Below, in pieces: positions 20,129-60,643 of a DNA stretch of 60,643 bases. This DNA is from a virus. Taxonomy: Duplodnaviria; Caudoviricetes. Made by a program: the position numbers and the translations under genes. The notes under the pieces were generated by a model. It saw only the letters and a program-made list of their open reading frames with translations, had not been told where the DNA came from and made no database searches. The stretch spans positions 1 to 60,643 of the IMG/VR virus record IMGVR_UViG_3300030104_001233. One strand, 5' to 3'. How positions within the stretch are numbered: position 1 is the stretch's first letter; the number at the start of each line of letters is the position of its first letter.

Positions 20129-20547
20129 AATTTTCCCTCTTCAACTAACGCTTTACGATTCGTCTCGTGAGCTGCTTTAATTTCTTTTTTATTCTGCCCA
20201 TGATACTCAACTGCGAGCTTGTTCTTGATAAGTAATTTTGTAATAAGTCCCTTTCGCGTTTTAATTTCGCCCAACCATCTTCCAAATTTTCCTTTCTCTT
20301 TTGTTCGGAGGATATATCTTTCCCCGACTTGGCAATGTTCTTGGACAAACTTCTTTGCAAGAAGACCATGTGCTTTCTCCTGTCTATTTCGTGTACGAGA
20401 TTCGGGTGCGTCAATTCCAAATAAACGAATATTAACGCCCCTACCATCATCACCCCTAAGAGTGACACCAAAACCCAAGTCGATGTCCACGCGTAGTCCA
20501 TCACCATCAGTAATAGATCGTATAATGCAACTGTATTCATAGAGCAT
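20125..20547 (-). CDS. Thermonuclease (staphylococcal nuclease-like)
   Basis: ITDGD, IDLGF, IRLFGIDAPE and GKFGRWLG motifs. Confidence 0.9.
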   Translation of the reverse strand: MLYEYSCIIRSITDGDGLRVDIDLGFGVTLRGDDGRGVNIRLFGIDAPESRTRNRQEKAHGLLAKKFVQEHCQVGERYILRTKEKGKFGRWLGEIKTRKGLITKLLIKNKLAVEYHGQNKKEIKAAHETNRKALVEEGKL

Positions 20548-20557
20548 GGTCCTCTCC

Positions 20558-20740
20558 TTATATACGTATTTTCTTTATGTCAGCTTCTGTTATAACTGTT
20601 TCACGCAATATAGCTGCTTCAAAATAGTGACACTCCAGACAATACCATCCAACTCGTTTACCTGTTTCCATATTAAGTACTTGGTCTGAGGTAGCTTTAC
20701 ACTTTGGGCAAGTGTTGGTACGCAAATCATCCGTCATCAC
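20558..20740 (-). CDS. Small zinc-ribbon protein
   Basis: CPKC and CLEC pairs. Confidence 0.65.
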   Translation of the reverse strand: MMTDDLRTNTCPKCKATSDQVLNMETGKRVGWYCLECHYFEAAILRETVITEADIKKIRI

Positions 20741-20852
20741 TACTTTCCGTTTCTTCTTCTAACGCATCAGCTATACGCTCTAATACAGTCAATAAACGTT
20801 CTATATATCTATCCGCTGTATCGTGGTCATCTAGTTCTATATTTATTTTCAT
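20727..20852 (-). CDS. Small acidic hypothetical protein (41 aa, not in ORF track)
   Basis: MKINIELDDHDTADRYIERLLTVLERIADALEEETESSDDG, preceded by a GAGG RBS. Confidence 0.6.
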   Translation of the reverse strand: MKINIELDDHDTADRYIERLLTVLERIADALEEETESSDDG

Positions 20853-20871
20853 ATTAACCTCAAATTCAATG

Positions 20872-21065
20872 CGTGCTCTCAAGTAGAAAAAGGAAAAACC
20901 CTTAAGGCACGACTAACCGTAGCGTGGCTTACTCGGCGTATGCACGTAAGCGAGTGAAAATATCAGAGAACCTAGACTCTGAAACAAGGAGGCTCACGTC
21001 ATATGCTGTGGGTGTTTTCGGGGAAGAATGATAAAAAACCCCTGCCCACCGCCCACTGGGGCTAA
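20872..21065 (-). ncRNA. Putative structured non-coding RNA (three-hairpin cloverleaf plus 3' hairpin)
   Basis: Four stem-loops and a closing stem in a ~200-bp gap without a plausible in-operon ORF; G-U pairs favour the minus strand. Confidence 0.6.
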
Positions 21066-22909
21066 CAAGTTCCATAAGAATTACCATAGCCTCCCTCACA
21101 ATCAAGAGGCAAATCTGGTGCCCATTTGGGCCTGACTTTCATAACTCTCTCAACTAACTGCATCCCTTTTTCAACCTCATCTTCTGGGACTATACATCCA
21201 ATAGCATCGTGTACAGTCATAACAACTTTATATTTCTGCGATACACGGAGCAACTGTTCACCGATAACGATTCTTGCCAGTGCCTGACATACGTTCTCGA
21301 TAACCTTACCTCCATATATTCTAGTAGACATAATCGTTCGACCTTTCCGGGTGTCGTACACAACTTCAGTTCTACCTTCTTCGTCCCTTTCCCTTCTTAG
21401 GTTAGGGTACTTAACATATAGACCGTTAGGGAGCTTTATGCCTTTAACACCATCCACCATGAGTATTCCAGAGCAGCCAAAGTAAGCAATCTTATCTTGC
21501 ATAATGCTCTCTAGTTTATCGCCCGCCGCTCTCCACAACTTGGGTATACGTGCGTAGGTGCTTCTATATACCTTTATAATACGCTCACATTCATACTCAT
21601 CCAGTTCCACCCCAAAGTTCTTGAGCTGGTTTCTAAATTTAACAGCCCCCATTCCATATCCTGCACCTAGTATAGTAGTCTTACCTACGAACCGTTCTTC
21701 TTTTGATATGTCTTCTTCGGGCTTATCGTAGATAGCGGAGGCCATCATCTTGTACACATCATCACCATTATCGAACGCCTCAACTAACCCTCCTTCCTCG
21801 GCCAACCACGCCAGAGTCCGTGCCTCTATCTGAGAGAGGTCACAGTCCACAAACTTGTACCCTTCTGGAGCGCACATAGCTTTTTTAAGCTCACTGCCTC
21901 GCGGTAAGTTCTGCATATTAATCTTGTCATCCCCACCCCATCTGCCTGTGTGGGCAGCGTAGTAGCGTAGTGGTATAGGTAGTGTACCCCTCTGAGCTAT
22001 CTCTATGAACCGCTGTGTTCTTGTTTCTTCGATGGTAGACCTTACTCCTAGTCTAGCAGCTACAAGAGCTTGTACCGACGGATTTTCGTGGTCCTGTAGA
22101 GCCTTAAAGCCCTCATCACTTTTTGCGAAGGCGAACGTCTCCTTGCCTGTGGTAGGGCTTATTTTCGTAGGAGGTTCGATATTGTACTCACGCAACAGCT
22201 CGGCAAACTGTGGATTAGAAGTTAACTGTGTTTTCTCATGGGTAATCTTATCCATTAGAGCTGCTTTAGTATCTACTACGTCTTTTAAGTGCTGGTCAAG
22301 TATATCTTTATCTAGTTCTAAAGCAGGTTCAGTAAACATGCGTAGGGTTAAGTCTATTAATGAAAGCTCAAAATTAGGAAACCCTTTTCTCAATACCTTA
22401 AATAGTTTGTGCGTAAGTTCTACATCTTGTATACAGTACCCACCATAGGCTTCTAGTTCCTCTGGTGTAAAATCTAAACGCTTCTTACCTATCGCATCAT
22501 GCACCTCAGTTCCTTTCTTACCTAATTCGTAATACTCAGATAAAGCTGCTAACCCCCCACCCACTTCAATAGAGTGGATAGCGCGTGACATTGCTAACGT
22601 ATCAGCAATCAACTTGGGCTTAATACCGAAGTGCCAGTTAAGGATAGCCATGTCGAACATGGCGTTGTGAGCTAGAGCCACAGAGTTTGACCAATCAAAC
22701 TGAGACAAAAACTGTTTTGTTTGTTTCTTGCTGCCAGAAAACCATTGTGCCGCAGCAGCTCTGCTTGATGATAGTTCCTGCCCATTGCATTTGACAGCAA
22801 CTCCGATAACCTCAAAACGAGGATCGCGTATATATTCTTCAGTAGTTAGTTTACTTAAACTAAAATCTTTTGAGTAATAAGTTTCAAAGTCGAGGGTGAG
22901 TATGTTCAT
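21062..22909 (-). CDS. polA: DNA polymerase family A with 3'-5' exonuclease domain
   Basis: LDFETY and AHNAMFD exonuclease motifs; HTGRW; motif A DLSQIEAR, motif B RFVGKTTILGAGYG, motif C VHD. Confidence 0.95.
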   Translation of the reverse strand: MNILTLDFETYYSKDFSLSKLTTEEYIRDPRFEVIGVAVKCNGQELSSSRAAAAQWFSGSKKQTKQFLSQFDWSNSVALAHNAMFDMAILNWHFGIKPKLIADTLAMSRAIHSIEVGGGLAALSEYYELGKKGTEVHDAIGKKRLDFTPEELEAYGGYCIQDVELTHKLFKVLRKGFPNFELSLIDLTLRMFTEPALELDKDILDQHLKDVVDTKAALMDKITHEKTQLTSNPQFAELLREYNIEPPTKISPTTGKETFAFAKSDEGFKALQDHENPSVQALVAARLGVRSTIEETRTQRFIEIAQRGTLPIPLRYYAAHTGRWGGDDKINMQNLPRGSELKKAMCAPEGYKFVDCDLSQIEARTLAWLAEEGGLVEAFDNGDDVYKMMASAIYDKPEEDISKEERFVGKTTILGAGYGMGAVKFRNQLKNFGVELDEYECERIIKVYRSTYARIPKLWRAAGDKLESIMQDKIAYFGCSGILMVDGVKGIKLPNGLYVKYPNLRRERDEEGRTEVVYDTRKGRTIMSTRIYGGKVIENVCQALARIVIGEQLLRVSQKYKVVMTVHDAIGCIVPEDEVEKGMQLVERVMKVRPKWAPDLPLDCEGGYGNSYGTC

Positions 22910-23195
22910 GGGACGATAAGTACTCTTCGAGTACACCTAGGTTATTTTCGTTGATTATGAATGTTGTGCCTTTGGCTTCTTTAATAGCGTTAAGCTCTCG
23001 TTCCTGTAGTGGAGTAGGTTTGTTCTTACCTGCTTTGCATTCTATTCCAATGAAACGGCCAAAAAAACAACAGACAATATCAGGCACTCCGCTTCGCCCC
23101 ATGCCATAAGTGGCAGGAAAAAAGTAATAGACTTGGTACTGCTTGAGTATATTAACTACTTTGTTTTTGACTTTCTTTTCAGGTGTAAGAGCCAT
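22884..23195 (-). CDS. VRR-NUC domain nuclease
   Basis: TPEKKV, GVPDI, IECKA and TPLQ motifs. Confidence 0.9.
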   Translation of the reverse strand: MALTPEKKVKNKVVNILKQYQVYYFFPATYGMGRSGVPDIVCCFFGRFIGIECKAGKNKPTPLQERELNAIKEAKGTTFIINENNLGVLEEYLSSHEHTHPRL

Positions 23196-23260: not shown

Positions 23261-23272
23261 TAGTAGGAAGGT

Positions 23273-23292
23273 TGCATAGGAATTCCTATGCA
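23273..23292. repeat. 20-bp perfect palindrome TGCATAGGAATTCCTATGCA, copy 1 of 5
   Basis: Exact sequence; supplies the TAG stop of the 23286-23438 ORF. Confidence 0.97.
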
Positions 23293-23438
23293 GATTTTGG
23301 AGGGAGTATCTTTTTGTTTTTAACTTGTAGCCATCCTCGCTTGTAGGATGCGTATCTGCTTTTGTTCATTGTCGGGTCTTGCTTGCGTACCTCTGCTAGA
23401 GTAGGACAAGACCCATCATCTTTTTGTTTCTTCATCAT
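23286..23438 (-). CDS. Small basic hypothetical protein (50 aa, not in ORF track)
   Basis: MMKKQKDDGSCPTLAEVRKQDPTMNKSRYASYKRGWLQVKNKKILPPKSA with AAGGAG RBS. Confidence 0.6.
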   Translation of the reverse strand: MMKKQKDDGSCPTLAEVRKQDPTMNKSRYASYKRGWLQVKNKKILPPKSA

Positions 23439-23847
23439 TGTTCTCCTTTAAACATTTTAGTTTTAACCATTCGATTGCCTTGTTTACTTCTGCGGGTACA
23501 GGTATGTCTTTCCCACCTTCAACATATAAAGTATCGCAAGGGTAAGTACCCCCACCGTTATACTCCAACTCTCCATCAACTGGAATCCACGTTGTAATAT
23601 CTAATAGGTAGTAAATGTCTCCTATTTCTAGCGGTTTTTCTTCTTCACAAAAAATATCTGCTATATTTTCCCATGACCAATCACACTCTTTCTCGTCAAA
23701 AAGTTCAAAAGAACCATCAGCTAGAATTCCCTGATACCCTATCTTCTCAGCAGAAACTTCTTCCCTGTTCTCTAGTCCAATACATTTCATGCCAATGCAA
23801 TCAAATTGATATATGGGTTCGCCTCTTTTTGTTTCTTCACTCATCAT
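23416..23847 (-). CDS. Acidic hypothetical protein
   Basis: Start placed at MMSEETK after the AAGGAGAACG leader. Confidence 0.7.
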   Translation of the reverse strand: MMSEETKRGEPIYQFDCIGMKCIGLENREEVSAEKIGYQGILADGSFELFDEKECDWSWENIADIFCEEEKPLEIGDIYYLLDITTWIPVDGELEYNGGGTYPCDTLYVEGGKDIPVPAEVNKAIEWLKLKCLKENNDEETKR

Positions 23848-24040
23848 CGTTCTCCTTTTCTTTTTGTTTTTTTTCATACTCACCCAAGTCAAAAGACATA
23901 CCCTCTAAGGTAGCCATCATTTCATTGTAGATGTAACTTTTACATTCCTCGTGGGTTGCGAGTTTTTCGTATCCAAAATAATGCGAAATAGCTTCTCTGT
24001 GGTCTTTGAGTAAATCAAAAGTTATTCTAACTTTCATCAT
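23837..24040 (-). CDS. Hypothetical protein
   Basis: 67-aa ORF with AAGGAGAACG leader. Confidence 0.7.
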   Translation of the reverse strand: MMKVRITFDLLKDHREAISHYFGYEKLATHEECKSYIYNEMMATLEGMSFDLGEYEKKQKEKENDDE

Positions 24041-24314
24041 CGTTCTCCTTTATCCCGACAATGCCTCCATCGTCAGGCCAGTTCTTATCATCAGCAAGAA
24101 TATCTTGCCAGCGTGGTTGGTCTAGGGCTACTTGCGTAGCCCCTTCCTTGTCTGCTTTGTTGACGTGTTCCTCAAGCACTCTTCGCATCTCCTTGGTGTA
24201 ACTAGGAAACTCCTTGAAGTAATCCACTACATACTTAGGTAGTCGCACGTTAGTGTGTAGCATAGAAGGCTTAACGCCTTTGCCTCTGGTTTGTTTATCA
24301 TTCGTCAAAGTCAA
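24027..24314 (-). CDS. BrnA-antitoxin-like ribbon-helix-helix protein
   Basis: RGKGVKP...TNVRLPKYVVDYFK...YTKEMRRVLEEHV matches the BrnA pattern (RG.P....K..v.lRld..V...fk.....yq..in..Lr). Confidence 0.55.
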   Translation of the reverse strand: MTLTNDKQTRGKGVKPSMLHTNVRLPKYVVDYFKEFPSYTKEMRRVLEEHVNKADKEGATQVALDQPRWQDILADDKNWPDDGGIVGIKENDDES

Positions 24315-25206
24315 AATTTAGTTCCTCCATAATGAAAAATTTATCGGCAGTTGCTTTGTATCCCACACCATCAATGGCTGTGTTATCTTCTGCAACTTTG
24401 AGTAAACCAACGGCGGTGCGTACATCTTCAGGCAGATCATCACGTTTCATACGTTTAACTCCCTTGTTTAGCGAGTAATACATATCACCCTTGTTAAGAA
24501 TAAATTGACCCTTATCATTTTCTACAGCATCGTTAAGACTTTTAGTAATTGATATGGCTTCTTTATCTTTCGCCCTTGCTTCTAGTTGCTTACTCATGCC
24601 ATGCGCGTTGACAAACTCAAATAACTCAGACGATTCTTGTTTGAGCATTACGCTAAGTTTATCTATGATGTCACGCGTTGCATTATCCCTTGTTCTCTTT
24701 AGTGAATAAGTGTGGTCAGACAAAGCACTTATTACATCACTCTCCACTTCATCCATTTCTTCCTGTAGGGTAAGAGGGTAAAAGTAACGAGCAAAGACAT
24801 TCTTTGCCGTACCTAGTTTTGAAGTTTTCTTACAACTACCTCGTCTTATATCCTCAGTTACTCGTTCATTGTAAAACTCCATTTGATCGCTGTAATAACT
24901 CCATTCAACTCTACCCAAACACTCTGTATCTGCAAGCACCAAAGCCTGAGTCATATAAACTTTATTTCCTTCTGAGTGATTAGCCTCAAGATAAAACGTA
25001 TATTCTGGATGCCTCTCAGCCAAGTAAGTAAATAAGTTAAGTGAGAAATCTTTGTAGTCTCTGTTTATAAGTTCTACAGGGTCTACAGTGTTTTGCCAAT
25101 ACAACACATTCCTTGGCATGTTCACAAACGATCCAAGTTCCTTATTTTCTATTTGTTCGCGTATTCTTTTTAGTTTACCTCTTTGTCCTCTGTGTACTGC
25201 TTTCAT
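24298..25206 (-). CDS. Hypothetical protein
   Basis: 302-aa ORF with AGGAGG RBS. Confidence 0.8.
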   Translation of the reverse strand: MKAVHRGQRGKLKRIREQIENKELGSFVNMPRNVLYWQNTVDPVELINRDYKDFSLNLFTYLAERHPEYTFYLEANHSEGNKVYMTQALVLADTECLGRVEWSYYSDQMEFYNERVTEDIRRGSCKKTSKLGTAKNVFARYFYPLTLQEEMDEVESDVISALSDHTYSLKRTRDNATRDIIDKLSVMLKQESSELFEFVNAHGMSKQLEARAKDKEAISITKSLNDAVENDKGQFILNKGDMYYSLNKGVKRMKRDDLPEDVRTAVGLLKVAEDNTAIDGVGYKATADKFFIMEELNFDFDE

Positions 25207-25216
25207 ATCACACCTC

Positions 25217-26080
25217 CTACCAGTCGTATGAATTAATAATAGAGTCCACTTCTTCTTTCACTGTCTTACGCACAGTGGGAGAATCTTTGAACATCTCTTT
25301 TGTTTTACCTACCATAATGTCCTCAAGGCGTTGACGTGCTTCTTCAACCTTGGGGTCATCAGTTAAGTTCATATGCTTTAGCATACGGCATAGGTTCAAC
25401 GGATTAGAAACAAACGTGTCATGCCATCGTTTATTATCGTCACTCTCTTCGTCTCCAGTATCCGTACACTTCGCACTTATACCTTGCAGCTCTTTGAGTA
25501 TCCGTTTCTCATTCTCCTTACTCGCTTCAGCTACCTTACGCTCTACTTCTGCATCGCATGAAAGTTTAAGTTCTTCCATTTCCTGTGTAGGTAAGTCCAC
25601 ACAAAAGTGTCCTGACTTCGGTACAGGTATAGATACAAAGTCCCAGTAAAATTTCCCCATGACTTCATTCACTGGTGGGTAATCAAGCGCGTTGAACATC
25701 TCCCCTCTATATTCTTCAGCAGTCTCACGATAACTGAAATACTTAACTCGGAAGGTATCCACTAGTTTGTTAAACCCCGCTTCTTTTAAGTTGTGCTGGG
25801 ATTTGTAATCTAAGAATAGACTAGTAGGACAAAGCCGATAGCCACGTTCATCCCAAGGCAACGTCATGGTGTTGTGCCATAGACGTGCTCCCGCTGCATA
25901 TTTCTGAATATCACTATGGCCTGTTGAACCAACCATTAAGTTGTCATACATACGCATGGCTTTGGGACTAGCTTTCTTGTTCGCAGCAACCTCATGTTCA
26001 AGTTGCTTGTTACGCTTGCTTGCTCCCCATACACCAATACTTAGACGTACCAATACTGCACTGTTTGCTATACCACTCAT
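25217..26080 (-). CDS. Helical phage protein usually found with AAA/vWA genes (DUF3150-like, tentative)
   Basis: IANSAVLVRLSIGVW, TLPWD, DYP and NLTDDP motifs; gene neighbourhood. Confidence 0.55.
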   Translation of the reverse strand: MSGIANSAVLVRLSIGVWGASKRNKQLEHEVAANKKASPKAMRMYDNLMVGSTGHSDIQKYAAGARLWHNTMTLPWDERGYRLCPTSLFLDYKSQHNLKEAGFNKLVDTFRVKYFSYRETAEEYRGEMFNALDYPPVNEVMGKFYWDFVSIPVPKSGHFCVDLPTQEMEELKLSCDAEVERKVAEASKENEKRILKELQGISAKCTDTGDEESDDNKRWHDTFVSNPLNLCRMLKHMNLTDDPKVEEARQRLEDIMVGKTKEMFKDSPTVRKTVKEEVDSIINSYDW

Positions 26081-26376
26081 ATCTCTCTCCTTTTTCTGTC
26101 ATCTATGTAGCGTTCATCTTTTCTTAGTTCACCCGTTGGATCATTTTCTGCAAGCCAATCTTGTAGAAGTAAAGTGATAACTTGGCTAATGGTTAACTTA
26201 ACTCCTATCTTTACAGACATAACAACCACGCAATCCCATAGTATTCCTACGGCTTCCTTGCTTGCGGTTATGTTCCTGCTCTTAAGAGCACTTTTCTTTT
26301 TCCATTCTTTCTCCCTAAGTTTTCGCTCTTCGTCACTCATTGGTGGTCTACCTCTTTTTCTTTTTACTTCACTCAT
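26077..26376 (-). CDS. AT-hook-containing small DNA-binding protein (paralog A)
   Basis: N-terminal KRKRGRPP; C-terminal WLAENDPTGELRK shared with the neighbouring gene. Confidence 0.65.
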   Translation of the reverse strand: MSEVKRKRGRPPMSDEERKLREKEWKKKSALKSRNITASKEAVGILWDCVVVMSVKIGVKLTISQVITLLLQDWLAENDPTGELRKDERYIDDRKRREI

Positions 26377-26651
26377 TGTTGTTCTCCTTTTCTTAGTTCA
26401 CCTGTTGGATCGTTCGTTGCAAGCCACTCATCTATAATAGCTGTGAGTGTTTGGCCTTTAGTTACTGAAAGATTCTTCAACCCTACCACCTCACCTAACT
26501 TATGCTGAAGCACTGCTTGGGCTTGCGTAATTCTCCCATGTACAGTTTTCGGTACGTTTACGCTTGCGTAAGCCTCTATATGTTTTTTCTTAGCGGCTTT
26601 GCGTTGTTCCTCTGTATGAGGTTTGCGTCCTCTTTTCTTTACTTCACTCAT
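26373..26651 (-). CDS. AT-hook-like small DNA-binding protein (paralog B)
   Basis: N-terminal KKRGRKP; SVNVP strand followed by helices; C-terminal WLATNDPTGELRK. Confidence 0.65.
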   Translation of the reverse strand: MSEVKKRGRKPHTEEQRKAAKKKHIEAYASVNVPKTVHGRITQAQAVLQHKLGEVVGLKNLSVTKGQTLTAIIDEWLATNDPTGELRKGEQQ

Positions 26652-26663
26652 TGTCGTTCTCCT

Positions 26664-27851
26664 TTAGTCAATGTTAATTGTTTTACCCATAGGGGCAGTT
26701 AGTGTTTTGTGATTAGCGATACCCCACAACACAGGCACAGTCCAATTACCCCAATCGCCAATCTCTCCGTCGGTGAGCACTACAACGCAATCGGGTTTGA
26801 TGCCTTCGTTCTTCATGTAATCAACCACACATTGAGGGGTGGTTCCTCCTCCACCCATTGCGGTCTTAAGTTCGGGGGCTTTCTTTAGTTGGTCACTGGT
26901 GAACACACCTCTGTACTCAACACTCCCATCCCAATCGAGCAGATGAATCTTGTTGATGTCGAGGGTGTCACATATACCAACCATCTCGCTTGTCACTTCG
27001 GTTAGTCTATTCTCAAAGTACATAGAGCCAGATGAATCACGAGCAAACACAATCTCATTAATGCTATTACCTTCTAGCGTAGGCATAATGACATCTTCGT
27101 GTAAGAACCTGCGATTAGGTCTGCGCCATGTAGATCGTTCCTTCTTACGACAAGTCGCATTGAGGAACATCCGCAACGCCACTCGCCAATCTACTTTCGG
27201 TGTCACCAACTCACCAAGACCCAGTGCATCTTGCAGTCCTGCTGTACCTGCTCTTGTCCCGTGCATACTTTGTCTTACAGCTTCGTTAATATCACCTTCG
27301 ACTTGTTTCTGTTCTTCCTTGGACAGCTTCTTCGCTCCTTCCCAGTCATGGTCATCAAGACCACCACCTCCTCCTACTGGTCCTTCTCCTTGCTTTGCTT
27401 TCTCAAGTAAGTCATAGAAGATAGCTTTGACCGCCCAGTCGTGATACTCAGGCATGTGTATACCTATGCGGTTACCATCCTTGTCTACTGGAAACTCAAT
27501 GTAGACTGCATTGGGGTCAGCCGTTTCAAGACGATCATTAATCCAAACATCCAAAGCTATATCAGCAATCTGTTGGTTTATCCTTTCCAACCCTTTGTAT
27601 GTATAGAAATGTTTGGCAGCTTTGTGCATCCATTCGTGCGCCAGTACAAACGCCACACCTTTGTCTCCGTTAGCTATAACATTGAATAGAAAGTCAAGGT
27701 TGTACCATTCGTCTCTACCGTCAGTACACGCTGTAGGTATTTCAGTAGTCATATGAGTATTACCGTACATGGCAATACCACGCAGTAACCCAAACGGCGG
27801 TGACCGCATGAGTCCAATCTTTATAGCTTTAAGTTTTCGTTCTTCACTCAT
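26664..27851 (-). CDS. Metallopeptidase-like plus vWA domain protein (DUF2201 type)
   Basis: TACTDG, HEWMH zinc motif, MIDAS DSSGS, GGGT and VLTDG. Confidence 0.88.
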   Translation of the reverse strand: MSEERKLKAIKIGLMRSPPFGLLRGIAMYGNTHMTTEIPTACTDGRDEWYNLDFLFNVIANGDKGVAFVLAHEWMHKAAKHFYTYKGLERINQQIADIALDVWINDRLETADPNAVYIEFPVDKDGNRIGIHMPEYHDWAVKAIFYDLLEKAKQGEGPVGGGGGLDDHDWEGAKKLSKEEQKQVEGDINEAVRQSMHGTRAGTAGLQDALGLGELVTPKVDWRVALRMFLNATCRKKERSTWRRPNRRFLHEDVIMPTLEGNSINEIVFARDSSGSMYFENRLTEVTSEMVGICDTLDINKIHLLDWDGSVEYRGVFTSDQLKKAPELKTAMGGGGTTPQCVVDYMKNEGIKPDCVVVLTDGEIGDWGNWTVPVLWGIANHKTLTAPMGKTINID

Positions 27852-27863
27852 AGTCGTTCTCCT

Positions 27864-28937
27864 TTATAGTAAGTCCTCATTGTCAGCAGCCCATTGAGCA
27901 AAGTCTCTGTTAGAGAATGCAATCAACTTCTTAGTCTCATGCTTGGCAAGTGCAACACAGAAGATAACTTGCCACTCCTCTTCCATTCGACGTAGGTACT
28001 TCAAGATGTTAGATAGCGTATCCTTCTCGACATGCGTCAGCAGTCCGAAACACAACACCGCACGAGCACCTGCTTCATCTGGTATTAGCGCAGTCGTAGG
28101 AGTCTCTTTGATAGACTGAATTGATGGTAAGGATTCTTGAAAGCGTATGAAGGAAGTAATACTAGCTGCAAACGCTGCCCCCGCTGCACCTGTCAAAGCT
28201 GCTGCTAGAGCAGTATCAGTGTAGTTATCGCGGTTCGCAATGATGCGACTAGCTATCTCCAGTATACGAGGTGATACCACATTGTCATTGGGACTAGATG
28301 GATGAAAGATAAACTCGTTCTTAACCCCATCAAGATAAGAGTCAAGAGCTTGGGGGTATCTGTCCACCCATGCCATCACAATAGGTTCAATGCCGTTGTT
28401 GAGTGCCCATGCCAACCATTCAGGCGCATTGGGTTTACGCACAATCAATTCAACAATACGTTGACGTGTATGTTGGGCCAGACCATCACCCACACCATCG
28501 GTATCAAGGTTACCCGTCATGTAGATAATGCTTCCTTCTGGTATTAGTAAGTCTCCCAGTCTGGGCATAAATACTTCTAGCGCAGGGTGAAGCATATTCT
28601 TTACAGGGTCAGCACCTTTGGTGAATTCGTCAAAGCACATAACAACTGGTTCACCGTTATGGATACCGAACCTAGCATTGGGGTAGTAGCGTGTGACTTT
28701 ATTCTCGTGGTCAATGACAGGCATACACACGTCACCGAGATCGAGATTGCCTACGTCAATAGGTCTACCCATAGCAAGAGGTAATCCAGACTGTCTTGCT
28801 ATTTCGTGAGCAATACTAGTCTTTCCAACCCCCGGCTCGCCTCGGAGCATAAATCTCACGTTGGGGTTGTGGACGATAAGTTGGATGGCTTCGTTAAGTG
28901 TTACAGTTTGAGTTTCATTAATCATTGATATTGTCAT
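27864..28937 (-). CDS. AAA+ ATPase (MoxR/AAA_5-like)
   Basis: Walker A GEPGVGKT, Walker B CFDEF, sensor TGN and SPR motif. Confidence 0.9.
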   Translation of the reverse strand: MTISMINETQTVTLNEAIQLIVHNPNVRFMLRGEPGVGKTSIAHEIARQSGLPLAMGRPIDVGNLDLGDVCMPVIDHENKVTRYYPNARFGIHNGEPVVMCFDEFTKGADPVKNMLHPALEVFMPRLGDLLIPEGSIIYMTGNLDTDGVGDGLAQHTRQRIVELIVRKPNAPEWLAWALNNGIEPIVMAWVDRYPQALDSYLDGVKNEFIFHPSSPNDNVVSPRILEIASRIIANRDNYTDTALAAALTGAAGAAFAASITSFIRFQESLPSIQSIKETPTTALIPDEAGARAVLCFGLLTHVEKDTLSNILKYLRRMEEEWQVIFCVALAKHETKKLIAFSNRDFAQWAADNEDLL

Positions 28938-28951
28938 TCTGTTTCTCCTTT

Positions 28952-28971
28952 TGCATAGGAATTCCTATGCA
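28952..28971. repeat. 20-bp palindrome, copy 2 of 5
   Basis: Exact sequence, abutting the AAGGAG RBS of the AAA ATPase gene. Confidence 0.97.
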
Positions 28972-29005
28972 GATATTTAAAGTTAATGTTAAGGTCGTGC
29001 GCGTT

Positions 29006-30514: not shown

Positions 30515-31394
30515 TGTCGTTCTCCTTTTTCTGTTTCCAATTACTTGTATCTATTTTGCTAGTAGCCGTATCGATATGATGTACTAGCTTGTCTCGCCAC
30601 AACTCTTTCTCCTTTAGTTGTCGTTCGAGTCCTACCAAGGTGTTCATTAACCTTTCAGCAACCTCGTTGTAGTACCCACGCTCACGAGTGACCAGAAACT
30701 TAAGTTCTTCCATAGTCAGGTCATCAAGGTCAGCTTCCATGAGGTGGTGTCGCTTGGGTTCCTCCTTCCACGCGTCTACCTGTAGACACCGGAACCCTTC
30801 TTTGCGCCACATATCAACCACGCTTTGCCTATCGTCTAGTATGCACAAGACATCATCAGGGGTTATCTTTAACTCGTACATCATCTCGTACTTAATAGTG
30901 GTGTCCGGTCTATAGTCACCTTCCTTACGCATATACAGATAGGGTCGGCCATCGTTCTTAAGGCTAGAAGGGGAGACAACCCATCTTTGTAACCACTCTT
31001 CTGTCTCTTTGCGTACCACTTCGCTACGTCCTGAGAAGAAGTAGATGAATCTATCGCTAACCTTTTGTAGATCAGTGGGGCGTTCACCATGTTTGCGGCC
31101 AGCGTCATACATATTCCACAGTATCTCAATCACATCCTTGTACGGTTCATCATCCACACACGCTTTGGTGAATGAATCCCAATCTGGACGTAACTTTTTC
31201 TTTAGCTCATCAATCTCCTGTTGATCCTCGGTGCATATATTAGGAAACTTGTTATGGCCTTTTGAGTCGCTGCTTAACGTAGCTATCCTCTTCTTTATCT
31301 CGGCTTCTTTGGGATTCCTGATGTAATGTAGTCTGTGTTCGATGTTGGCTATCGTGCCATCTATGTCACATATGATTAGGTTTTTATCTTTCAT
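30507..31394 (-). CDS. HAD phosphatase of the T4 PNK (PseT) 3'-phosphatase type, with C-terminal coiled coil
   Basis: ICDIDGT, FSGR, MRKEGDYRPD..IK and LDDR..VV.MWR..G..CLQV; no kinase P-loop. Confidence 0.85.
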   Translation of the reverse strand: MKDKNLIICDIDGTIANIEHRLHYIRNPKEAEIKKRIATLSSDSKGHNKFPNICTEDQQEIDELKKKLRPDWDSFTKACVDDEPYKDVIEILWNMYDAGRKHGERPTDLQKVSDRFIYFFSGRSEVVRKETEEWLQRWVVSPSSLKNDGRPYLYMRKEGDYRPDTTIKYEMMYELKITPDDVLCILDDRQSVVDMWRKEGFRCLQVDAWKEEPKRHHLMEADLDDLTMEELKFLVTRERGYYNEVAERLMNTLVGLERQLKEKELWRDKLVHHIDTATSKIDTSNWKQKKENDNG

Positions 31395-31930: not shown

Positions 31931-31986
31931 TAGTATGGCGCAGCTCCTCCATAACTATCATCAGTAGCTACTGATGATTTAAGATC

Positions 31987-32006
31987 TGCATAGGAATTCC
32001 TATGCA
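31987..32006. repeat. 20-bp palindrome, copy 3 of 5 (flank in opposite orientation)
   Basis: atc-TGCATAGGAATTCCTATGCA-a. Confidence 0.97.
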
Positions 32007-32045
32007 AGCGAAAATGAGCGAAATCTGGGCACTTTTTTAAGGCCC

Positions 32046-32876: not shown

Positions 32877-32897
32877 AACTTTTTCACTCTTAGTTAT

Positions 32898-32917
32898 TGC
32901 ATAGGAATTCCTATGCA
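32898..32917. repeat. 20-bp palindrome, copy 4 of 5
   Basis: Exact sequence, 21 bp upstream of the ATG at 32876. Confidence 0.97.
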
Positions 32918-32934
32918 GATTATGTTTGACTCTT

Positions 32935-33041: not shown

Positions 33042-33055
33042 AGAGCCGATTGGAT

Positions 33056-33075
33056 TGCATAGGAATTCCTATGCA
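33056..33075. repeat. 20-bp palindrome, copy 5 of 5 (22-bp perfect with flanks)
   Basis: t-TGCATAGGAATTCCTATGCA-a. Confidence 0.97.
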
Positions 33076-33104
33076 AAGTGAGAAACTTTCTCTCACTTAT
33101 ATAT

Positions 33105-49409: not shown

Positions 49410-50120
49410 ATGGCTGATAAAATTGTAGGTCTTGGAGCTACATGGGGCGCAGGTACGTGGGGCCAAGGCTCGTGGGGGAATAATGTCAATATTTCCGTAT
49501 CAGCTACAGGAGCAATAGGCACTGTAGGATTCTCCATAGGAGGGTCTGTAATCCCTACTGGAGTACAGGGAACTAGCGCAGTAGGTGGTGTTGGTATAAA
49601 CCGTACGGGACTTATAATCCCAACAGGCACAGCAGGAACAGGTAGTGTAGGAACTGTAACTACTGCATATACCAGTGTGCAAACACCGACAGGCGTAAGT
49701 GGTACGGGTGCAGTAGGAACTACTTCAATAAGCGTAGTAGATTCTGTAACTCCTACAGGCGTAAGTGGTACGGGTGCTATAGGCGCTGTTGGACTTGTGG
49801 TAGGAGATTTACTTGAGCCTATTGGAGTTCAAGGCGCGGGTGCTGTCGGTACGGCTACTCCAGCTTACGATAGGATTGTAGCTGTTACAGGGGTAGTTGG
49901 TACAAGTGCTGTCGGAGCACCTACTGATTTAGTGTTACCTGCGATAACTGGAGTGGTGGGGACAGGTGGAGTTGAGCCTGTTACTATTGCATTTGGTGGT
50001 TCTATAGTAGCTACAGGTGTAAGTGGTACAGGCGCGGTAGGAACAATAAGTAGAGGTGGTTGGACTACGATAGATGATTCTCAAACACCTACTTGGGTAG
50101 ATATAAACAAAGCAGCATAG
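49410..50120 (+). CDS. Repetitive Gly/Thr/Val-rich structural protein
   Basis: Multiple (P)TGVSGTGAVG repeats; N-terminal WGAGTWG. Confidence 0.7.
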   Translation: MADKIVGLGATWGAGTWGQGSWGNNVNISVSATGAIGTVGFSIGGSVIPTGVQGTSAVGGVGINRTGLIIPTGTAGTGSVGTVTTAYTSVQTPTGVSGTGAVGTTSISVVDSVTPTGVSGTGAIGAVGLVVGDLLEPIGVQGAGAVGTATPAYDRIVAVTGVVGTSAVGAPTDLVLPAITGVVGTGGVEPVTIAFGGSIVATGVSGTGAVGTISRGGWTTIDDSQTPTWVDINKAA

Positions 50121-58810: not shown

Positions 58811-60643
58811 ATGGGCACCAGACGAAAATTAGGCGCAAATTCTATGGTCGTTACTCCGGGGGGTCTGAGTATTCCTGCGGGCTATGCCAATATACCTTCT
58901 GTAACAAGCACGGCATCCAGAGGAAACTTAGGGTCTGTTAACTTAGGCGCTATGGGGCTAGGTTCTTTAGGTGCTAGCGGTGGTGGTTTTGATCTTCTTC
59001 CTTCCGCATTTTCATCGAGTAATCCTTTTTACGGCCTATCCTTTAGGGATGCAGCGGCTAAAGCAGCAGCAGAAGCAGGGACACCCGCAGCGGGCCAAGG
59101 TTTTGCCCAAGCATCCGATGCCAACAAAGAAAAAAATCAAATAGAAGCCGCTAATCTAGGGCTTTTTTCCACTGATTTTGACCCTAACACTTACGATTCG
59201 TTAAAAGAAGATTGGATAGCAGCGGGAGAAAAGTTAGCAGCGCATAATCAAAAATACCGTGAATTAGCTATAACTGACCCTACATTTAAAGAAGTTACAG
59301 ATCAGTTTTTTGAAGATCAAAAAGATTTACAAGATAATTTACAAAAAGCTAGAAGTGCTTTTATAGCCGCAGGTGGTGACCCAGACGGACTGACTCAAAG
59401 AGCTATAGCAGCGGCAGCGGGTGGAATAGGGGGGATTGCTAATACTTTACCTCAATTAGCAGGAGCAGGGACATGGAACCAAGTAAAAGTAACGCCGGGG
59501 ACTATTACAGGAACTTTTAATCCACAAGGCCCAAACGAACTAATATCTATAGGCAAGGCTGGACCTACAGGAGATACAACTGTTGTAACCAGTACAGGAG
59601 TACCTGCTCTTGATGATGCTGTAAATGACTTATTGGGGGGTGAAAGTGTAGCCACCGCAGACGTTCCTACTGCGGGTGAAATAGGCGAGGCAGTGGGAGA
59701 GTTAATAGGTGGAGGATTAGAGGAAGTAGCGGCGGGCACGTTGGCTGCTACTTCTGATGCAGATAAAAGCACTGAAGGCACTGATGTAGTTGTAGGTGGT
59801 GACAATAAAGGCGGTGCTCCTGCTGGTGGTGACAATACTCTGGATAGTGACAATAAAGGCGGTGCTCCTGCTGGTGGTGACAACACTCTGGGTAATGTAG
59901 GGGCAGCGGGTACAACGACAGACACAACGACAGACGCACTGAAAGGCACTGTAGCTGTACGGGATATGGCAGGTTCAGTTGCACCTCAAGTAGAGGGTCA
60001 GGTAGATGTTAGTAATGCCGTTAAAGGTGGGATAGGAACTATAACTACTACAGACGGCGTTAGTGCTTTAGATGTAAAAGGTTCTGTATCCCCCTATGAC
60101 ATAGCTACCACAAAAGGTGTTGATAATTTAGATGTAGAAGGTTCTATAAATCCTTATGAGTATGAAACTACAGGAGAAATTAAAAGCGACGAAGTAAAAA
60201 CTCTTGAAGATGTTAAAGGTGGCGGGGGCAGCAACAGAGGTGGAGGAGATGCTAGTCTGTTTTTACCTCAAAGTTTTAGAGGTATCAGAGAAGAACCGGG
60301 TGATTTAGTTGATATTGATTATCTCTATGATTTTGATGATGGTTTAGAACAACTTTTTGAAGCTACAGAAGACGAAGAAGAGATAGAAAAAGGTTTATAC
60401 GTATACGAAGAGGGTGGCGAAGTGGCTAAACAAGATGCGGTAGATGTAGTGACTAGAAGACCGGGAGAGTACGGTAGAAGTTATTTTACACAAGGAGAGG
60501 GAACAGGTTTTATACCCACAGGCACTGCACTTGGTGGCGAATCTCTAACGTCTAGTGAAATACAAATACCAAAGTATACGTACGAAAGAGACTTACTACC
60601 GCAGTTTGGTGGTCCTGTTGGGCAACCCTCTGTAGGTCAACCC
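58811..60643 (+). CDS. 5' part of the ~1029-aa internal virion protein, continuing at base 1 (missing from ORF track)
   Basis: Manual translation from the ATG at 58811 shows no stop to the window end; frame matches 1-1356. Confidence 0.85.
   Translation, partial: MGTRRKLGANSMVVTPGGLSIPAGYANIPSVTSTASRGNLGSVNLGAMGLGSLGASGGGFDLLPSAFSSSNPFYGLSFRDAAAKAAAEAGTPAAGQGFAQASDANKEKNQIEAANLGLFSTDFDPNTYDSLKEDWIAAGEKLAAHNQKYRELAITDPTFKEVTDQFFEDQKDLQDNLQKARSAFIAAGGDPDGLTQRAIAAAAGGIGGIANTLPQLAGAGTWNQVKVTPGTITGTFNPQGPNELISIGKAGPTGDTTVVTSTGVPALDDAVNDLLGGESVATADVPTAGEIGEAVGELIGGGLEEVAAGTLAATSDADKSTEGTDVVVGGDNKGGAPAGGDNTLDSDNKGGAPAGGDNTLGNVGAAGTTTDTTTDALKGTVAVRDMAGSVAPQVEGQVDVSNAVKGGIGTITTTDGVSALDVKGSVSPYDIATTKGVDNLDVEGSINPYEYETTGEIKSDEVKTLEDVKGGGGSNRGGGDASLFLPQSFRGIREEPGDLVDIDYLYDFDDGLEQLFEATEDEEEIEKGLYVYEEGGEVAKQDAVDVVTRRPGEYGRSYFTQGEGTGFIPTGTALGGESLTSSEIQIPKYTYERDLLPQFGGPVGQPSVGQP
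59801..59891 (+). repeat. 48-bp-period coding duplication (DNKGGAPAGGDNTL)
   Basis: Copies start at 59801 and 59849. Confidence 0.9.
60545..60642. repeat. Terminal direct repeat, right copy
   Basis: Identical to 1-98. Confidence 0.95.

Follow-up and report, generated by a model that had tools for sequence, protein, structure and literature searches.

A conserved structured RNA domain behind the DNA polymerase gene of a marine phage and the family to which it belongs

RNA folds that are complex, pseudoknotted and deeply conserved, with many invariant nucleotides, have mostly proved to work as ribozymes or riboswitches or to bind core machines. The phage RNAs P1 C4 and P4 CI are cloverleaf-like, with loops that pair with targets within their own operon, the active RNA being processed by RNase P from a longer transcript, and the Bacillus EAR element is an RNA-only antiterminator. 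The DNA analyzed here (hereafter the window) spans an entire viral record, 60,643 bases long (IMG/VR record IMGVR_UViG_3300030104_001233, Caudoviricetes; completeness rated 98%) from a phage found in marine or estuarine DNA sequencing runs (20 runs listed, no RNA run among the listed holders). An original prediction made from its letters had drawn a cloverleaf-like RNA behind the DNA polymerase gene, on the minus strand, and read it as an antisense RNA with loops aimed at ribosome-binding regions. Comparison of sequences now identifies the stretch 20872-21061 of that strand as a genuine conserved structured RNA domain of a large family lacking from Rfam 15. The predicted object was real and unusually interesting, and a conserved multi-helix element does lie on the strand of the replication genes; it had been drawn wrongly, two of its loops were over-read, and neither the cloverleaf drawing nor most of the interpretation survived. 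The reading favoured here, to which we assign a probability of roughly 0.4, is that the element would be a cis-acting module on the operon transcript, working through a conserved host machine or by acting on itself.

In the accessible text of PMC9378689, the putRNA of phage HK022 is a two-arm RNA with a triplex in its first arm. The element resembles it in having a two-arm fold with a higher-order first arm, a triplex in put and a predicted pseudoknot here, and resembles both put and EAR as a cis-encoded, sense-strand structured RNA of phage or long operons that has no dedicated protein. Unlike put (ca. 70 nt), it is about twice that size and in the window does not stand beside a promoter. A covariance model of the family (R1, see below), run over the complete HK022 genome (L563) with an E cutoff of 1, gave no hit, indicating that the element is not the HK022 put RNA.

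Surveys of known RNAs returned no counterpart. Rfam 15 (4227 families) in gathering mode gave no match in the whole window and none in eight diverse family loci, and in E-value mode the region 20500-21500 gave one chance hit (E 8.5) to an unrelated long non-coding RNA model. ARAGORN found no tRNA or tmRNA gene in the window. No published description was found in the literature on phage or prophage structured RNA, on put RNA or on the core sequence words, and the accessible portions of recent preprints and of papers from the Breaker and Weinberg laboratories do not mention the motif. The catalogue of Fremin, Bhatt and Kyrpides (2023) holds 10,006 unnamed viral or phage structured-RNA candidates from IMG/VR contigs, some of them upstream of genes; the main text, in its accessible part, gives neither a name nor a function for the family of this element (PMC10690425).

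Comparative evidence for the RNA domain and its fold

Folded alone, the 194 nt that include the element reach -62.0 kcal/mol, against -50.0 ± 4.3 for shuffled sequences (z -2.81; 1 of 200 shuffles as low). The decisive evidence for the element, however, is comparative and not this single-sequence folding energy. Relatives of the polymerase were confirmed 593 times in viral contigs, and the best 80 (68-98% amino-acid identity) were kept. Both anchor motifs were present 3' of the polymerase in 79 of these 80, and the remaining locus matches the covariance model. Anchor-to-anchor length ranged from 108 to 169 nt among the polymerase relatives, in increments not divisible by three, and different open reading frames (ORFs) follow in different relatives, which together indicate that the region is not coding. 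Some records annotate a hypothetical protein spanning the post-polymerase gap.

Sequences were aligned with MAFFT, hand anchoring and model-based alignment. An alignment of 59 distinct copies (A1) was used to derive helices from compensating changes and to build R1. The proposed fold pairs 97.9% of 1357 cells in A1, compared with 81.5% in column shuffles and 25-57% when the partner strand is slid by 1-3 columns. Both sides change in 18 of the 23 pairs, among them 4 of 5 in P1 (GNGGG/CCCN'C), 11 of 11 in P3 and 2 of 4 in P4. A further alignment of 72 distinct sequences (A2), largely different from those of A1 and fitted to R1, which favours the fold, shows 95.2% of cells paired and two-sided changes in 16 of 20 pairs. 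R1 matches the window at 20905-21064 (116.9 bits, E 1.1e-24), the only copy there. The family is marked by compensating changes in P1, P3 and P4 and by conserved CCCCAG-N-GGGCGGUGGG, AACACCC-N-CA and CCG strands. Through such compensating changes four helices are established, and the family and its conserved strands are likewise shown by the alignments. Twenty-four columns of A1 are invariant, and the consensus of 100 diverse copies retains CCCAG-N-GGGCGGUGGG, AACACCC-N-CA, CG and the P4 frame CC-CG-A-GG.

Wobble cells are one-sided, with 76 G-U against 3 A-C, which places the structure on the gene-sense strand and points to RNA-like behaviour. A structure specific to that strand, tolerating wobble as RNA does, speaks against a DNA-level element such as an origin or a single-strand initiation, recombination or packaging signal with hairpins in single-stranded DNA. 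Location in the replication or recombination modules of many phages would suit an element of that kind; occurrence between lysis and terminase genes would not, and we regard it as very improbable.

The fold that emerges is a 5' core with a predicted pseudoknot, in which helix S1 is interlaced with P1 and which holds the CGGUGGG and A-rich strands and the optional P2, followed 3' by the long helix P3, an invariant CCG, hairpin P4 and, in the window lineage, P5. In the window, where all parts lie on the minus strand and are given 5' to 3', the domain begins 1 nt after the TAG stop of the family-A DNA polymerase (21062-21064) and comprises the core (20915-21061) and the lineage-specific P5. The 5' strand of S1 is CCC (21059-21061), in the conserved CCCCAG, and its proposed partner is GGG (21045-21047), a weakly supported pairing. 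S1 pairs in 59 of 59 sequences with variation limited to five U-G and one double change (U-A in L059), so that it is probable and not shown. The 5' strand of P1, GUGGG (21052-21056), is paired in 99.3% of A1 cells; its 3' strand CCCAC follows the A-rich GAAAACA (together 21008-21019). Next to the 5' strand lies the near-invariant CGGUGGG (21045-21051), made up of a CGGU joiner and the 3' strand of S1, which over the 59 sequences shows no variation at G15-G19 and at least 90% conservation at C14 and G20, and which persists in the 100-sequence alignment. An all-against-all covariation scan of 59 and of 100 sequences found no pseudoknot other than the S1 pair 4-20. An attractive further contact would join CGG (21049-21051) to the CCG joiner, two invariant strands that can give no covariation signal.

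P2, GGGG-(15 nt loop)-CCCC (21020-21042), is optional and has a loop that is not conserved; folding predicts a hairpin of 3 bp or more here in 51 of the 59 relatives, and in 6 the segment is just 8-10 nt long. Many relatives (L019, L022, L034, L038, L041 and others) carry an extra hairpin, GGGG-(U-rich loop of ca. 15 nt)-CCCC, inserted after the polymerase stop and ahead of the core. The GGGG/CCCC hairpin behaves as a movable module, ahead of the core in many relatives and, as a look-alike, P2 inside the core of the window.

P3 is a long irregular helix (20936-21006) with its 5' strand at 20995-21006 and its 3' strand at 20936-20948, one unpaired base on the former and two on the latter; this hairpin architecture recurs in the single-sequence folds of all 59 sequences. 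Its interior (20949-20994) contains the strand CCUCCUU (20986-20992), which is the window copy of a CUCC-type word of the family, an apical hairpin UCAGAG-(8 nt)-CUCUGA (20963-20982) that is variable among relatives, and on the 3' side UAUUUUCACUC (20952-20962), a degenerate form of the strand CGUUCUC(C). The CCG joiner (20934-20936), with C130 and G131 invariant, leads to P4, AGCC-(ACGCUAC)-GGUU (20915-20929), paired in 100% of cells and covarying at 4 of 4 pairs in A2. The ends of the P4 loop (A1 columns 179 and 185) covary in a non-Watson-Crick manner, mostly A...C, about a dozen times G...A and once A...A, which suggests a non-canonical closing pair.

P5 (20872-20911), with the base CGUG...CACG and a 17-nt pyrimidine-rich loop, is present with compensated stems in 28 of 28 distinct sequences of the window lineage, the long pyrimidine loop in 7 of them. 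The stretch that follows (20850-20871) contains the conserved linker CAUUGAAUUU, a Shine-Dalgarno GAGG (20858-20861) and the ATG (20850-20852) of a 41-aa ORF, leaving 10 nt between the end of P5 and the Shine-Dalgarno sequence. In a marine subgroup (L448, L454, L457, L466, L480, L493, L497, L530, L536 and others) P5 is enlarged to a longer domain 3' of P4, holding a conserved strand CUGAAU-R-GGUGGGG that echoes the GGUGGG of the core. A pairing of this strand with the CUCC strand of P3 was considered and dropped, the complementarity being inconsistent on inspection.

Set against the same 59 distinct sequences, the cloverleaf pairs 61.6% of cells, compared with 59.8% in shuffles. Its closing stem and UGG/CCA helix are paired in 65% and 68% of cells and its third arm in 36%. 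The outer part of its first arm, GCGGUGGG/CCCACAGC, reaches 83% with no two-sided change and one position never paired; it is an alternative register of P1, and variants that compensate in P1 do not compensate there. What remains of the drawing are the inner GGGG/CCCC of the first arm, which is P2, the inner UCAGAG/CUCUGA of the second, which is the tip of P3 (the outer part of that arm is paired in 53% of cells), and the 3' hairpin, which is P5.

The CUCC word and the antisense proposal

The P3 interior is variable in length, yet CUCC occurs in it in 81 of 105 distinct members, against a mean of 25.1 and a maximum of 36 in shuffles, and UUCUC in 60 of 105 against about 10 expected. In most polymerase-lineage relatives the word takes the form CGUUCUC(C) on the 3' side of the interior. 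An anti-Shine-Dalgarno-like word (CUCC/CCUCC), contained in the CCUCCUU singled out by the original prediction, is therefore a conserved feature of the family. Three loops were compared with 82 predicted leaders of the window, using shuffled loops as controls. The window strand CCUCCUUGUU paired with the leaders better than its shuffles (-7.85 versus -6.33 ± 0.61; 2 of 200 as low), as any anti-Shine-Dalgarno word would do. By contrast, the two other loops gave no support as seeds. For the loop of the first arm, 83% of shuffles had an equal or lower mean energy, and it is absent from 6 of the 59 sequences and variable elsewhere. For the loop of the 3' hairpin, 13.5% of shuffles were as good across the leaders; the claimed 13-pair duplex with the leader at 30520-30532 exists (-15.1 kcal/mol), but its energy is matched by 13% of shuffled loops. 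The first-arm loop and the long form of the 3' loop are confined to near relatives of the window.

The leaders of the window include a repeat family, D2, in which six minus-strand early genes (23418-27865) share a near-identical start context, AAAGGAGAACGA-YR-ATG, and first codons. The core of this context, GGAGAACG, is the exact complement of CGUUCUCC, a strand found in many relatives of the RNA.

These observations bear on the proposal that a stable small RNA, processed from the operon transcript, would pair in trans with Shine-Dalgarno regions of phage or host through its pyrimidine loops. Conservation of the CUCC word, the better-than-shuffled pairing of CCUCCUUGUU, a compact fold that would favour stability and the complementarity of CGUUCUCC to sequences ahead of early genes of the window are all in its favour. 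However, CGUUCUCC is missing from the window itself, the two other loops are neither conserved nor better than shuffles, and Pseudomonas members lack the CUCC word even though their genes use GGAGAAC. The word, moreover, would be a generic anti-Shine-Dalgarno seed with no target specificity, antisense action needs no deeply conserved pseudoknotted core, and neither a promoter nor a terminator of its own was found for the element. Like P1 C4 and P4 CI, it would be a phage RNA drawn from a longer transcript with loops predicted to be able to pair with ribosome-binding regions; unlike them, it has no supported cloverleaf, matches no C4 model in Rfam and does not conserve the loops that had been named, so that the suggested likeness to these RNAs fell away. 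Regulation in trans of this kind seems rather unlikely to us.

Distribution, gene neighbourhood and genome setting

A pattern scan of viral contigs for the core form with a short P2 matched at least 120 contigs. R1 matched 118 of the 120 pattern-found contigs listed, the two misses looking like chance pattern hits, and gave no hit on 100 chance loci, taken from unspecific pattern scans of genome contigs and reused as a control. By blastn, the element was found in 38 records of Pseudomonas aeruginosa temperate phages, including PMG1, PAJU2, YMC11/02/R656 and phi1; blastn of three other subfamily members against phages or E. coli genomes gave no match. Five bacterial contigs with phage genes were recovered by a third pattern scan of genome contigs, whose matches were otherwise mostly chance or coding. 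By their record titles they belong to Halomonas, Alkalilimnicola, Kistimonas, Saccharospirillaceae and a Lysinibacter metagenome-assembled genome, the last matching the 5' core only, and one of these bacterial genomes has two copies. Among 150 other genomes of one bacterial class no element was found, in a search that was strictly filtered and relied on a model derived from the marine lineage. On these occurrences, the family appears to sit in intergenic gaps of operons in many otherwise unrelated phages.

A self-cleaving ribozyme of a new class, cutting the transcript between the polymerase and the downstream genes as a natural insulator, would account for several of these traits. About 25 invariant or near-invariant nucleotides are concentrated in the joining strands and the pseudoknotted core, the peripheral stems (P2, the P3 tip, P5) are optional or variable, the element is largely confined to phages with no fixed gene partner, and none of the 150 bacterial genomes had it. 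Twister, pistol, hatchet and many hammerhead ribozymes show the same kind of distribution, and these, together with HDV-like ribozymes, also combine a conserved pseudoknotted core with variable peripheral stems and occur in phages and prophages with no fixed gene partner. On the other hand, no ribozyme model of Rfam 15 matches, the order of helices does not fit the layouts of those ribozymes, and mapping onto HDV-like and twister layouts, done by hand alone, failed; to our knowledge, few complex orphan motifs have proved to be ribozymes. We consider self-cleavage unlikely, if worth keeping in view.

In the window, the element lies on the minus strand in the 210-nt gap that separates the polymerase stop from the ATG (20852) of the 41-aa ORF. 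In PMG1 and YMC11/02/R656 it is unannotated and lies between small ORFs of an operon with recombination genes, and in these two phages, as in the window, every flanking gene is on the strand of the element. Across loci, the genes found upstream include those for DNA polymerase A, YqaJ and PD-(D/E)XK nucleases, methyltransferases, Mu Gam, Rha and Rz; those on the downstream side include RecT, Erf, VG64, HNH, T5orf172, small terminase and many small unknown ORFs. When proteins of the window were compared with loci outside the polymerase lineage (up to ca. 14 kb around the RNA), no match was found except weak ones of two lysis-region ORFs. Varied neighbours and no shared partner protein point to a host partner or to self-action, and conservation across phages with unrelated proteins argues against an operator for a phage protein. 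In a subgroup of six loci (L462, L464, L513, L534, L453, L473) the element, with a divergent 3' part, has lysis or Rha genes upstream and HNH, T5orf172 or small-terminase genes downstream, a placement that puts this subgroup in late rather than early operons.

The last hairpin ends ca. 9-15 nt before the next Shine-Dalgarno sequence in the lineages inspected, a placement that may reflect mere tight gene packing. A riboswitch or protein-binding translational operator for the next gene, comparable to the T4 gene 32 operator, would suit such a position, with its pseudoknotted conserved core directly upstream of a ribosome-binding site. The two elements have in common an H-type pseudoknot, here a predicted one, on the 5' side of an untranslated stretch leading into a ribosome-binding site within a replication or recombination module. 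Frequent neighbours are recombination genes (exonuclease, RecT, Erf, single-stranded-DNA-binding protein (SSB), Gam), and an SSB gene directly follows the element in the bacterial contig L380. That contig, however, is the only examined locus with this arrangement, in contrast to gene 32; the downstream gene changes with lineage, in many cases to a small unknown ORF, there is no obvious expression platform, U tracts being absent from P4 and P5, and no cis-specific pairing with the ribosome-binding site was found. A riboswitch in particular would be associated consistently with genes of one pathway, whereas the downstream genes vary here, and the scan saw no terminator-like site at P4 or P5. Such control of the next gene is quite improbable in our judgement.

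The window carries the same 98 bases at either end as a direct repeat (1-98 and 60545-60642), and the genome, as assembled, is circular or terminally redundant. From ca. 33 kb down to 12 kb it carries minus-strand genes with replication and recombination functions, whose products are polynucleotide kinase, an ATPase, an HNH endonuclease, an endonuclease, the family-A DNA polymerase, SNase-type and PD-(D/E)XK nucleases, an SNF2 helicase, a gp2.5-like single-stranded-DNA-binding protein and a primase/helicase. The polymerase gene (21062-22936) has the Pfam domain DNA_pol_A and a 3'-5' exonuclease. Polymerases of named phages reach 34-36% identity only, and blastn of the window region against named phages gave no match. 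A promoter-like site lies ahead of the endonuclease-polymerase unit (23230-23202, minus strand), and a strong terminator-like hairpin (23259-23240, minus strand) stands next to a palindromic repeat. The latter is one of five copies (23272-23299, 28951-28978, 31986-32013, 32897-32924 and 33055-33082) of a 20-bp perfect palindrome, TGCATAGGAATTCCTATGCA, all in gaps of the early region, that looks like an operator for a dimeric regulator. Outside this region, the ORF 136-1356 contains a tandem 198-nt repeat (328-720), and short repeats of Gly-rich or collagen-like type occur in ORFs at ca. 49.4-50.0 kb (49428-50041); the ORFs that bear them probably encode fibre proteins.

No promoter-like or terminator-like site flanks the element, and a terminator scan flagged only the P3 tip hairpin and one site within the polymerase gene. 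P4 and P5 were rejected as intrinsic terminators, there being no terminator-like site and no U tract at either, and P5 being followed by CAUUGAAUUU. This setting bears on a further explanation, in which the element, like HK022 put and Bacillus EAR, would be an RNA-only processive antiterminator that binds host RNA polymerase and reads through downstream terminators. It lies in sense orientation within long operons, in one copy per phage genome here (two in the one bacterial genome), no partner protein was found, its sequence conservation among phages that infect different hosts suits a target that is itself conserved, for instance RNA polymerase, and the two-arm plan with a higher-order first arm is that of putRNA in the accessible text of PMC9378689. 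By contrast, R1 found nothing in the HK022 genome, the element is ca. 2.2 kb from its likely promoter (ca. 23.2 kb), and one subgroup sits between lysis and terminase genes. In addition, no strong minus-strand terminator was seen from 21.0 to 12.0 kb, so that antitermination is not favoured here, and we hold it to be improbable.

Favoured mode of action and significance

Sense-strand orientation, a single copy within an operon, a deeply conserved core and the lack of a partner protein in our searches together favour action in cis through a host machine or on the element itself, the reading given a probability of roughly 0.4 above. A published yardstick also speaks for it: in Weinberg et al. 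(2017), motifs that have a pseudoknot or multistem junction and a large number of nucleotides at 97% conservation or above are said usually to carry out sophisticated tasks (PMC5737381). We infer transcription, action in cis and the nature of the partner alike. On this account the element would be read as part of the replication-operon mRNA, from the minus strand, and its core would fold during transcription into a compact module. A universally conserved host machine would then recognise the module, or the module would act on itself, and the outcome would set the processing, stability or translation of the downstream cistrons. The CUCC strand would be the part that deals with Shine-Dalgarno sequences. 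Within action in cis, the evidence does not tell apart translational control through CUCC, processing or stabilisation, and read-through.

Several observations weigh against this account or against the fold and novelty on which it builds. The P3 interior pairs with its own downstream ribosome-binding site at -10.07 kcal/mol and with the sites of other members at -10.64 kcal/mol, and the own-site value barely improves on that of shuffled interiors (-9.62 ± 0.25). Such lack of any advantage for the own partner leaves sequestration of the Shine-Dalgarno sequence in cis with no specific support. The window has lost CGUUCUC(C) from the 3' strand of its P3 interior, CCUCCUU being kept on the 5' side. 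S1 draws on a single double change plus wobbles, U-U stands at the second P1 pair in 15 of the 72 distinct A2 sequences, and kinship among the sequences inflates the shuffle statistics. Long ORFs lie on the strand of the RNA on both sides in 77 of 138 loci, a crude count that is unreliable because of spurious ORFs in GC-rich DNA. Finally, the element may already be an unnamed entry in the catalogue of Fremin et al. (2023; PMC10690425).

A bolder view takes the family for catalytic or machine-binding RNA of a new class, either a ribozyme or a direct reprogrammer of host RNA polymerase or ribosomes, which we think possible and on balance doubtful.

Marine viromes contain the fold in abundance, and well-studied temperate phages of P. 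aeruginosa (PMG1, PAJU2, YMC11/02/R656) have it as well; Rfam 15 lacks it. Its carriers include genetically tractable phages, which makes its function directly testable. Even as an orphan motif it would correct phage annotation, turning what is taken for a post-polymerase gap into a candidate functional element. If the element proved to work without protein as an insulator, antiterminator or ribozyme, the partitioning of long phage operons would be explained and synthetic biology would gain a compact part. Should the family be a catalytic or machine-binding class, phages of many Gammaproteobacteria, from marine lytic phages through to temperate phages of Pseudomonas aeruginosa, would share a portable, protein-free module of operon control.

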